A stretch of 64,000 nt of DNA from an uncultured Pseudomonadales bacterium (GTDB lineage: Bacteria; Patescibacteriota; Microgenomatia; UBA1400; PJMF01): NCBI GenBank assembly GCA_964583625.1, contig CAZOVA010000001.1, positions 159,349 to 223,348 on the forward strand. Direction: 5' to 3'. Made by a program: the position numbers and the translations under genes. The notes under the pieces were generated by a model. That model was not told the origin of the DNA. It did not search any database and saw nothing but the letters and a program-made list of their open reading frames with translations. Shown piece by piece: positions 4,296-6,072 of this stretch (positions are counted from its first letter, which is position 1; each line of letters starts with the position of its first letter).

Positions 4296-5255
4296 TTATT
4301 TTTTGGTGAGAAAATCACGGATTTCCATTGCTGCCAAAGTGCCACTCCCCACAGCTACGGTAATTTGCGCTTGCTGTCGAGAAATAATATCTCCTGCCAC
4401 AAAAACCCCCTCAATGGCGGTCGCCGTTTGTTGCGAGGTCTGTTTGTCTGTTTTAGTTAGTAAATAACCCTGTTCATCAGTGGGAAGAAATGATTTAAAA
4501 ATTTCTGTATTAGGGATTTGGCCAATAGCTAAGAACACACCATCAACTAACAACTCTTCTTCTTTTGGTAGAGAATCCAATTGGGTATTCAGCAACTGAA
4601 TTTTTTCTAAACGATTTTCTCCAATAAGAGCTTTAACTTGACGGTGAAAAATGCTGACTATTTTCTTTTCTTTTTTAATTTGTTCTTGTAAATAAGCTTC
4701 GGCTTTGAATTGGGCGGAACGAGCGATTAAATAAACTTTTTCAGCATAAGTAGATAAAAGCAAAGCTTCCTCTAGTGCTTTATTGCCCGAACCAATGACC
4801 GCCACCGTTTTATTTTTGTAAAGCGGTCCGTCACAGGTGGCACAAAAAGCTAGACCTTTACCTAAAAACTTTTCTTCCTCAGGTAGAGCTAATTTTCTAG
4901 CTTGACTCCCAGAGGCAATCAAAACTACCTGAGCGGTATAATTAGGTTCTTGTTGCTGATTATTGGTCCAAATAGCGAAAGGCTTTTTTTTGAAATCTAC
5001 TTTGGTAACCGATTCATAAACAATTTCCGCTCCAAACCTTTCTGCTTGGGATAAATAAAGCTGAGCCAATTGTGGACCAGCCACTCCCTGAGGAAAACCA
5101 GGATAGTTTTCGACCACATCAGTATTAATTAAATGACCACCAGGACTTAAGCCAGTTAAAATAAGAGGTTTAAAATTAAAACGACCCAGATAAAGTCCTG
5201 CCGTCAGGCCAGCTGGTCCAGCTCCAATGATAATAATTTCTTGATTTTTAGTCAT
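4296..5255 (-). CDS. trxB: Thioredoxin-disulfide reductase
   Basis: GAGPAG FAD motif, redox-active CATCDG, second Rossmann GSGN. 319 aa. Confidence 0.9.
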   Translation of the reverse strand: MTKNQEIIIIGAGPAGLTAGLYLGRFNFKPLILTGLSPGGHLINTDVVENYPGFPQGVAGPQLAQLYLSQAERFGAEIVYESVTKVDFKKKPFAIWTNNQQQEPNYTAQVVLIASGSQARKLALPEEEKFLGKGLAFCATCDGPLYKNKTVAVIGSGNKALEEALLLSTYAEKVYLIARSAQFKAEAYLQEQIKKEKKIVSIFHRQVKALIGENRLEKIQLLNTQLDSLPKEEELLVDGVFLAIGQIPNTEIFKSFLPTDEQGYLLTKTDKQTSQQTATAIEGVFVAGDIISRQQAQITVAVGSGTLAAMEIRDFLTKK

Positions 5256-5589
5256 TTTTTTCCAAATGATTGGTAATTAGACTTTCGAAGCCGGCCTTCC
5301 CTAGAAAACCGCTTGCTCGCTCAACCTCTTTGCCTTTTTTGAGGACCACTAGTGTTGGCATGCTCATAATTCCATATTCAGCCACACTTTTAGGGCAGAG
5401 ATCAACATCAATTTTTGCCACCGCCACTGACTTTTTATATTGTCTAGCCAATTCTTCAATAATTGGGCCAGTCATTTGACAAGGACCGCACCAGGTAGCA
5501 AAAAAATCTAAAAGGATTAATTTATCTTGATTATTTTTTAGAAATTCAGCTAGAGAGTCATCATTTATATGTATTGCCGCATCTGCCAT
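5248..5589 (-). CDS. trxA: Thioredoxin
   Basis: WCGPC active site. 113 aa. 8-nt overlap with trxB (operon). Confidence 0.9.
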   Translation of the reverse strand: MADAAIHINDDSLAEFLKNNQDKLILLDFFATWCGPCQMTGPIIEELARQYKKSVAVAKIDVDLCPKSVAEYGIMSMPTLVVLKKGKEVERASGFLGKAGFESLITNHLEKND

Positions 5590-5673
5590 AAGGTCTTTCT
5601 AAACAAGCTTTAAAAGAATACCTATTTTACCCGATTTCTTTTCAAAAATCATCTTAGATTGTTTTTAAAATAA

Positions 5674-6072
5674 TTAATATTTAGCACAAGTGCCAGCACA
5701 ATTATCAGGAAAACACCAAATTGTCGGATCCCAATCCTCTGGACAGCCAATATTAGGGGCAGAAATAGAGCTACAACAAGTAGCACACTCCAAAGGAGCA
5801 CATTGACAAACATTATTAGTACAACTAGCTATTTGACCCTGCCCCGGGCAATTGGCTTGACAGTCTTTATAACCATTCCACTCTGGAGAATAACCGCAGC
5901 TTTCCCCGCACTTTCCCAAGGGAAGAGGAGAAGGTAGAGGCTTTTTGAGTAAACTAGTATTTTTGGTCGTCGCTAAGATACCAGCAGTAGACATTACCAC
6001 CACAATAATTAAAAGAAAAAATAAGAGAATTTTTTTCACACAAAAAATAATAACCCAATTTTTTATCTTCAA
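5674..6072 (-). CDS. Small secreted cysteine-rich protein (14 Cys in ~95-aa mature region) with N-terminal signal/TM
   Basis: Hydrophobic N-terminus followed by a CxxxC / CC / CxC-rich C-terminal half. Same strand as trxA-trxB and 84 nt upstream of them. Confidence 0.55.
   Translation of the reverse strand: MKIKNWVIIFCVKKILLFFLLIIVVVMSTAGILATTKNTSLLKKPLPSPLPLGKCGESCGYSPEWNGYKDCQANCPGQGQIASCTNNVCQCAPLECATCCSSISAPNIGCPEDWDPTIWCFPDNCAGTCAKY

Follow-up and report, generated by a model that had tools for sequence, protein, structure and literature searches.

Bacterial cis-defensins, which share an alpha/beta fold that cysteines stabilize (CS-alpha/beta), have been divided into classes I-V (Cardoso et al. 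2024; PMC11561630). They are recognized by a precursor of 30-130 residues, a Cys regular expression, a signal peptide without a transmembrane (TM) segment, the CS-alpha/beta fold, a GXC gamma-core motif, and disulfides connected C1-C4, C2-C5 and C3-C6 (PMC11561630). Their reported hosts are limited to Myxococcota/Proteobacteria, Acidobacteria and Actinobacteria (PMC11561630, PMC8819291). Actifensin and actinomycesin are further cis-defensins available for comparison (PMC12284004, PMC8819291); actifensin binds lipid II (PMC11561630, PMC12284004), and Xanthusin-1 illustrates that the CS-alpha/beta fold by itself does not imply antimicrobial activity (PMC11561630). Here, we describe a Cys-rich open reading frame (ORF) directly upstream of the thioredoxin genes trxA-trxB in a 64,000-nt stretch of DNA (the window; GenBank assembly GCA_964583625.1, contig CAZOVA010000001.1, positions 159,349 to 223,348) from an uncultured, small-genome bacterium that RecA places in Patescibacteria, or Candidate Phyla Radiation (CPR). 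The best explanation of our results is that the ORF is a gene confined to one species of this group. We consider it somewhat probable that its product is an acidic mini-protein, exported or tethered to the membrane and locked by disulfides, which binds a target outside the cell.

Position and cysteine content of the ORF

5674..6072, minus strand: maximal Cys-rich ORF, TTG start, 132 codons plus stop
5674..6039, minus strand: favored coding sequence, putative GTG start, predicted 121-residue precursor beginning MKKILLFF

The translation of the maximal ORF is exactly the sequence quoted in the original prediction, an earlier reading of this DNA. The 132-aa ORF with 14 clustered Cys, 84 nt upstream of trxA-trxB on the same strand, that it described is borne out; the Cys count is correct, but the Cys-rich part is tighter than the ~95 residues given for it. 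Fourteen Cys are packed in 75 residues (all in the last 78), and one more lies in the N-terminal extension (residues 11, 55, 59, 71, 75, 84, 89, 91, 96, 99, 100, 110, 120, 125 and 129). The spacings in the domain include three CxxxC, one CxC and one CxxCC. Cys makes up 18% of the domain, compared to a mean of 0.73% over the 58 long ORFs of the window, an enrichment far beyond chance. A repeat array or low-complexity artefact was rejected, because internal duplication spans only 11-12 nt (GKCG/ESCG). This direct duplication, GGAAAGTGCGG / GGAAAGCTGCGG, lies at 5894-5917 on the minus strand and encodes GKCG and ESCG where the Cys domain begins.

Coding evidence and homologue searches

Because there is no homologue with which to measure selection, the case for coding rests on signals intrinsic to the ORF. 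The frame is free of stops for 144 codons; when the 750-nt interval is shuffled, only 0.08% of the shuffles contain so long a run (P=8e-4). Cys codons are rare in the training set, and with them set aside the ORF scores 0.377 per codon in frame, compared to 0.33+-0.085 for the genes of the window, and the five other frames score approximately zero or negative (maximum 0.03). GC content at third codon positions (GC3) is 0.293 in the ORF and 0.292 in the window genes, and overall GC is 39% compared to 24% in the intergenic flanks. The identical protein is encoded on ~20 metagenome contigs from independent samples, among which the sole polymorphism in the ORF is synonymous (Ser62, TCT/TCC). The ORF is very probably a genuine gene.

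A word-indexed search of 5.8 billion proteins returned the Cys-rich protein itself alone, and no Cys-rich homologue was found by a scan of JGI metagenomes, a scan of IMG/VR or tblastn of phage and plasmid records. When GTDB genomes were scanned with TrxB, the best match was 44% identical and no near relative emerged. The original prediction had counted lack of conservation against itself; no homologue turned up anywhere we searched, and the intrinsic coding evidence is good nevertheless. Horizontal transfer from a eukaryote was rejected, since GC3 is the same as in the host genes.

The lack of homologues does lend some weight to the alternative that the ORF is spurious, consisting of non-coding or decaying intergenic DNA that has stayed open by luck: there are 0 homologues in 1.84 billion representative proteins, the gene is missing at the syntenic site of relatives, and the codon score is just 0.058 per codon once Cys codons are counted. 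We regard this alternative as very unlikely given the length of the ORF (P=8e-4), codon usage that is gene-like without the rare Cys codons, GC3 equal to that of genes, and GC 15 points higher than in flanking intergenic DNA. In addition, ~750 nt of non-coding DNA would be odd in a window so densely coded, the Cys framework and predicted signal peptide are coherent protein features, and the single nucleotide polymorphism is synonymous.

A sharp haplotype boundary lies at 6119, just upstream of the -35 box of the Cys gene (6088-6226 of the window; loci L006, L024-L026). Compared to the window, locus L006 has 17 differences in 6119-6215 and two (5887, 5187) in 5037-6118. Near 6088, one k-mer (31 nt) into the shared block, several Logan contigs come to an end; three of them were inspected, and there are 14 further similar places.

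Start codon and predicted export

5971..6039, minus strand: predicted Sec signal peptide, (V/M)KK-ILLFFLLIIVVVM-STAGILA, with n, h and c regions and agreement with the -3/-1 rule
5917..5970, minus strand: Pro-rich spacer or tail of 18 residues, TTKNTSLLKKPLPSPLPL, with a predicted local distance difference test (pLDDT) score <50 in AlphaFold2 (AF2)
6086-6114, minus strand: promoter-like element TTGTAA-17-TGcTATTAT, a consensus match only
6085-6080, minus strand: second TATTAT, 7 nt ahead of TTG 6072

We infer that GTG 6039, or else TTG 6072, is the most likely start codon. The reading frame remains open upstream of ATG 5994, where 12 codons in a row have T at position 2 (P~0.001 in the ORF frame), and for these reasons we read the upstream segment as coding for hydrophobic residues. 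Translated from GTG 6039, the precursor would comprise a signal peptide, the 18-residue Pro-rich spacer and an 80-residue acidic Cys domain, with candidate cleavage sites between ILA and TT or between STA and G. The h-region of 13-20 residues might serve as an uncleaved anchor, and the signal peptide needs a non-ATG start. Other predicted exported proteins of the window also begin with MKK and a hydrophobic stretch (starts at 6340, 8274, 25405 and 27022). For the signal or TM N-terminus of the original prediction to exist, TTG 6072 or GTG 6039 must be the start codon; the product of ATG 5994 lacks it. A leaderless start at TTG 6072 is also possible because of the TATTAT 7 nt before it, a distance similar to that at the leaderless-type starts of many window genes.

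A TATAAT-like box 6-10 nt upstream of ATG, in the absence of a Shine-Dalgarno (SD) sequence, is seen at many of the window's genes, for example upstream of 3718(-), 14333(-), 27084(+), 28269(+), 55912(+) and 58488(+), which suggests that leaderless transcripts are widespread among them. A minority have a strong AAGGAGG, such as the 207-aa gene at 6340. Given that SD sequences are rare and leaderless-type starts are many, the choice of ATG by gene callers is weak evidence here. More generally, the ATG preference of automatic calls can trim signal peptides from genes in such genomes.

Two other routes to the cell surface were considered and rejected. A lipoprotein would need a lipobox, which is absent (IIFC has F at position -1), and the C-terminal sorting signal of a sortase substrate is absent from the Cys-rich protein.

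Domain composition and fold

5785..5910, minus strand: eight-Cys core C55..C96, fitting a CS-alpha/beta framework of the drosomycin/plant-defensin type
5686..5778, minus strand: six-Cys C-terminal module CC-x9-C-x9-C-x4-C-x3-C, which resembles nothing

The Cys domain is acidic, with 3 K/R compared to 8 D/E, a net charge of ~-5 and a pI of 4.1, and contains 7 aromatics (3 W, 3 Y, 1 F), 7 Pro and 0 His. Its eight-Cys framework arises by chance in 0.6% of shuffles, and a six-Cys core of consecutive Cys in 2.6% of composition-matched shuffles. Within this core, the spacing C71xxxC75-x8-C84-x4-C89xC91 is the same as in alpha-KTx5 toxins, and the cis-defensin regular expression CX(2,18)CX3CX(2,12)CX(4,17)CXC is matched by C59-x11-C71-x3-C75-x8-C84-x4-C89-x-C91. 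GXC occurs in the protein only at G53-K54-C55 and G127-T128-C129, outside the predicted hairpin.

Profile and structure searches pointed in the same direction. The only Pfam match is Toxin_6 (PF05453), which scores 17.6 bits against the complete sequence, 18.9 against the 80-aa domain alone and 20.9 against a 43-aa core, and none of 10 shuffled controls had any Pfam match at E<=0.1. The core had eight PDB sequence matches, each of them a short K+ channel toxin from scorpions (alpha-KTx; E 0.12-0.94). The toxin alignments displayed are gapless or have a single gap, that with alpha-KTx 5.4 being gapless over a common CxxxC-x8-C-x4-CxC-xP. In two single-sequence AF2 runs, YKDCQAN was modeled as a helix and IASCT/VCQC as a hairpin, the residues at which these elements would be expected, and in Foldseek the model core aligned with scyllatoxin at a TM-score of 0.60 over 26 columns (E 5.3). 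That the first eight Cys form a CS-alpha/beta core is suggested by these models and spacings, but we hold it to be a tentative assignment, nearer to doubtful than to probable.

Several results weigh against an exported protein of this kind. Public gene calls start at ATG 5994 (106 aa, P0001) and thus lack the signal peptide, and T-rich DNA gives hydrophobic residues anyway. An exhaustive phmmer (HMMER) search of 1.84 billion representative proteins returned the protein itself alone, so that selection is unmeasurable. The cis-defensin regular expression also fits 24% of composition-matched shuffles, and for this reason a match to so permissive a pattern says little by itself. The best Toxin_6 match (E 5e-4, 20.9 bits) is below the 25-bit gathering cut-off, the pLDDT of the AF2 models is low (57), and Foldseek found nothing significant for either model against PDB. 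Every fold-level match is below threshold and none is independent of the Cys pattern. GXC is absent before C84, the fourth Cys of the six-Cys core, where the residues are I-A-S-C. Finally, read-through co-transcription into trxA is possible, with no terminator between the genes.

Of the "knottin- or defensin-like" peptide originally envisaged, a real, disulfide-dense and probably exported mini-protein is supported; likeness to defensins is plausible, with the fold putative. A metal-binding role, also raised in the original prediction, is disfavored: the domain has 7 aromatics, no His and one CxxC compared to three CxxxC, and the protein matched no metal-binding or Fe-S family in Pfam or NCBIfam. 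The NCBIfam profiles gave no match of any kind for it. The same composition disfavors a metallothionein. A copper-storage or other four-helix Cys protein was rejected for its excess of Pro and Gly and lack of a family match, and EGF and granulin domains were rejected for unfit spacing and lack of a match.

Relationship to the thioredoxin system

5248-5589, minus strand: trxA, thioredoxin with WCGPC (PF00085, E 1e-25), regarded as a neighbor only
4296-5255, minus strand: trxB, low-Mr thioredoxin reductase with CATC (PF07992, E 4e-43)
5590..5673, minus strand: 84-nt spacer between the ORF and trxA, with a TAAAAT box (5629-5624) and AGAAAG-N6-ATG

The Cys-rich ORF, trxA and trxB are on one strand, with 84 nt from the stop codon of the ORF to the ATG of trxA and an 8-nt overlap of trxB with trxA. 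The TAAAAT box lies 34 nt ahead of the trxA ATG, and both it and the AGAAAG-N6-ATG element are common to relative L028, which has no Cys gene. This arrangement suggests that trxA very probably keeps its own promoter. Neither a terminator nor a structured RNA was found in the 84-nt spacer (fold z = +0.9).

The thioredoxin system reduces disulfides in the cytoplasm, and exported proteins are oxidized outside the cell. Since the two processes occur in different compartments, no mechanistic coupling between the genes is needed. A functional link is unsupported in view of the relatives without the gene and the promoter-like box of trxA. Co-expression with, or reduction by, thioredoxin had been one of the options first raised; all five relatives keep trxA-trxB without the Cys ORF, and the proposed check for homologues next to trx genes in related genomes found none. 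It is fairly probable that the adjacency of the Cys gene to trxA-trxB is incidental.

The alternative is a cytoplasmic protein. Translated from ATG 5994 (M27) and co-transcribed with trxA-trxB, it could buffer thiols or metal, sense redox state or be a substrate of thioredoxin, its 14 thiols kept reduced by the thioredoxin system. All gene callers took ATG 5994, which is the first AUG past the promoter-like site, and the gene lies on the same strand 84 nt upstream of trxA with a terminator-free gap. We nonetheless judge a cytoplasmic role unlikely, because the upstream in-frame segment has coding-type periodicity and would form a textbook signal peptide, and a cytoplasmic protein would not be expected to begin with 28 disordered, Pro-rich residues. 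Its composition (7 aromatics, 7 Pro, no His, one CxxC) is unlike that of metallothioneins, zinc ribbons or Fe-S motifs. Furthermore, the gene is missing from every relative that retains trxAB, and trxA has a promoter-like box of its own.

Capacity for disulfide formation

14425..15510, minus strand: membrane-anchored DsbA-like thioredoxin-fold protein with CGHC (PF13462, 24.3 bits, cut-off 23.2; PF01323, 22 bits)

The DsbA-like protein encoded 9 kb from the Cys gene is a plausible candidate to oxidize the 14 Cys outside the cytoplasm. It is a single-pass protein with a Lys-rich cytoplasmic N-terminus and a CGHC motif of the protein disulfide isomerase type, and relative L028 encodes a similar protein of 357 aa. 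Two other proteins of the window, at 26225-27022 (-) and 24734-25405 (-), are predicted to be exported, are acidic and have MKK-type signal peptides; the former ends in two TM helices. Cys counts are even in the exported parts of all three proteins: 14 in the Cys-rich protein, 12 in 26225-27022 and 6 in 24734-25405. From what is established about Dsb systems, such even counts would fit extracytoplasmic disulfide formation.

The same part of the window contains a 365-nt tandem duplication at 25397-26172, with 99% identity, that gives rise to two near-identical 122-aa ORFs (25402-25770 and 25767-26135). A 46-nt element upstream of these ORFs is present in three copies. The duplication adjoins T4SS_pilin (PF18895) paralogues at 24347-25405.

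Synteny in relatives and neighboring genes

6340..6963, plus strand: divergent gene for a 207-aa orphan protein, predicted to be exported, beyond the start of the Cys-rich ORF

Beyond the 207-aa orphan lies a gene for a Fic/helix-turn-helix protein (7051-8175, plus strand), and downstream of trxB are a response regulator and then a histidine kinase. The closest sampled relatives have TrxB just 51-53% identical. In five of them, L027 (GCA_030539095.1), L028, L029, L030 and L031, trxA-trxB is conserved throughout, and TrxA is 72-76% identical where measured (L027, L028, L030). Fic is retained in two of the five, at 90% identity, as is a small surface protein where the flank is present. No Cys-rich ORF was found in any frame near trxA-trxB of the five relatives; in three of them the sequence upstream of trxA is readable, and it holds nothing similar to the Cys gene. 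Instead, the Fic-trxA interval of the relatives holds an unrelated gene of 95-119 aa on the Fic strand. The 207-aa neighbor has no relatives in JGI metagenomes and is missing from the syntenic relatives as well. Because the Cys gene and the 207-aa gene are both unique to the window, we view the Fic-trxA interval as a variable slot, occupied in this species by two divergently transcribed orphans, both predicted to be exported.

Several features of the neighborhood were noted in passing. The identity of Fic in relatives (90%; L027 3063-4151, L030 2330-3418) compares to 51-53% for TrxB and 72-76% for TrxA, an excess that reflects either unusually strong constraint or recent exchange. The small surface protein at 8238-8570 (+) has a conserved CTTDSYGNxSC and occupies the same position in L027 and L030; its C-terminal hydrophobic/KKK tail recalls the sorting signals of sortase substrates (NF053819, with a below-cut-off match at E 4e-6). 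At 6152-6339 (+), a near-consensus promoter, TTGACT-17-TGnTATAAT (11/12), precedes the GTG start of the 207-aa gene by ~150 nt, and its -10 region pairs with the ribosome-binding region through an inverted repeat of 18 nt (6166-6183 / 6309-6326). This segment, which has no Rfam match, may be a regulatory 5' untranslated region of the 207-aa gene; over the whole window, Rfam found three tRNAs and nothing else.

Downstream of trxB and on its strand (-), 1532-4240 of the window encodes the response regulator and a histidine kinase with seven TM segments. L027, L029, L030 and L031 differ by a local rearrangement: their regulator gene has the reverse orientation, with AMP-binding and ThiF-family genes lying between it and the kinase gene. 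Two alphaproteobacterial metagenome-assembled genomes encode a lipoprotein with a Cys-rich C-terminus (...CTKKGDAYTCRYGQTVCGKGCKSDGSNCSYGYC...) ~3.5 kb from trxB (L007 7562-8242 (-), L008 7541-8224 (-)), which is probably unrelated to the Cys-rich protein.

Proposed function

In the explanation that we favor, that of an exported or membrane-tethered binding protein, translation from GTG 6039 (or TTG 6072) would yield the 121-aa precursor with its Sec signal peptide. Outside the cytoplasm, the 14 Cys would be oxidized to form up to seven disulfides, with a membrane-anchored DsbA-like CGHC protein such as that at 14425-15510 as the oxidase. The first eight Cys might then form a CS-alpha/beta core and the last six an extra module, giving a rigid extracellular binding module. 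It could be a ligand resembling toxins or inhibitors, or a factor by which an epibiont acts at its surface or on its host. A lineage-specific insertion into the variable Fic-trxA slot would have placed the gene upstream of trxA-trxB.

The CS-alpha/beta-like Cys framework and the predicted signal peptide would also suit a secreted antimicrobial defensin or bacteriocin, for example one that binds lipid II like actifensin or plectasin. Bacterial cis-defensins exist, and actifensin has this target (PMC11561630, PMC12284004). We think an antimicrobial quite unlikely here. The net charge is ~-5 and the pI 4.1; GXGCP, a GFGC-type motif at the N-terminus and GXC ahead of C84 are all absent (PMC12284004, PMC11561630); immunity or export genes are not adjacent; and Xanthusin-1 is a reminder that the fold alone does not mean antimicrobial activity (PMC11561630). 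A binding module is likelier than a membrane-active antimicrobial since the protein is anionic and without lipid II-binding and gamma-core motifs. Of the toxin or antimicrobial first suggested, a secreted, toxin-like ligand is plausible, and a cationic antimicrobial is disfavored.

The layout of a leader-like N-terminus followed by a Cys-rich C-terminus also recalls the precursor of a peptide made by ribosomes and modified after translation (RiPP), the core of which would be modified by a radical-SAM or lanthipeptide-type enzyme. This is highly improbable: no maturase, protease or dedicated transporter is nearby (the neighbors are trxA, trxB, the 207-aa orphan, Fic and the two-component system), the N-terminus resembles a Sec-type signal peptide and not a RiPP leader, and an 80-residue core would be far bigger than known cores.

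A more specific version of the binding-protein proposal, which we offer as speculation and consider somewhat unlikely, is that this is the first CPR CS-alpha/beta protein, an acidic seven-disulfide "extended defensin" that an ultrasmall epibiont exports as a channel- or receptor-binding effector. In this version, a core with alpha-KTx5-type spacing would be fused to a new six-Cys module, and the effector would be aimed at the host or at competitors.

The protein is a single-species orphan from a phylum without reported secreted, disulfide-rich, defensin-like mini-proteins. If the fold holds, the cis-defensin or CS-alpha/beta scaffold reaches Patescibacteria, from which none has been reported in published surveys. 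In that case, the protein would represent an unusual acidic 14-Cys variant, open to recombinant production and to assays of binding or toxicity. Among the secreted effectors of CPR bacteria, those with a structural or functional handle are very few. If the fold fails, it would be one more lineage-specific exported orphan. The case also illustrates that a position next to trxA-trxB says little by itself about what a gene does.

Comparison with known systems

With short scorpion K+ channel toxins (PF05453/BmP02; alpha-KTx5 tamapin and scyllatoxin; cobatoxin), the Cys-rich protein shares an identical, gapless CxxxC-x8-C-x4-CxC-xP. However, these toxins are basic, 29-32 residues long and equipped with Arg/Lys pharmacophores, whereas the Cys-rich protein is acidic, ~3 times longer and bacterial. 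The order C1..C2..C3xxxC4..C5..C6xC7..C8 is that of drosomycin and the 8-Cys plant defensins, but the C1-C2 loop is x3 and not x8-10, and there is no Pfam gamma-thionin match. The protein is disulfide-dense like the knottins, and its Cys spacings of 3, 8, 4, 1 and 4 would presumably also satisfy a loose inhibitor cystine knot consensus. Unlike knottins, it has a predicted helix carrying CxxxC, the hallmark of CS-alpha/beta proteins.

Among bacterial proteins, the cis-defensins are the closest comparison. In common with them, the Cys-rich protein has a small precursor of up to 130 aa (121 aa with the GTG 6039 start and 106 aa with ATG 5994; only TTG 6072 would give 132), a predicted signal peptide and the Cys search pattern. 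A long unstructured N-terminal tail is shared with class IV, and a possible fourth disulfide, from the first to the eighth Cys, would be shared with class V and plant defensins. In contrast to cis-defensins, the protein shows no sequence homology to them, has no GXC gamma-core before C84, is acidic rather than cationic, has an extra six-Cys C-terminal module for a total of 14 Cys, and comes from Patescibacteria, outside their reported hosts. Judged by sequence, it would pass the cis-defensin filters for length and Cys pattern, probably also that for the signal peptide, and fail that for GXC. Rather than filing the Cys-rich protein in the cis-defensin family, we suggest that it may work as a CS-alpha/beta binder.

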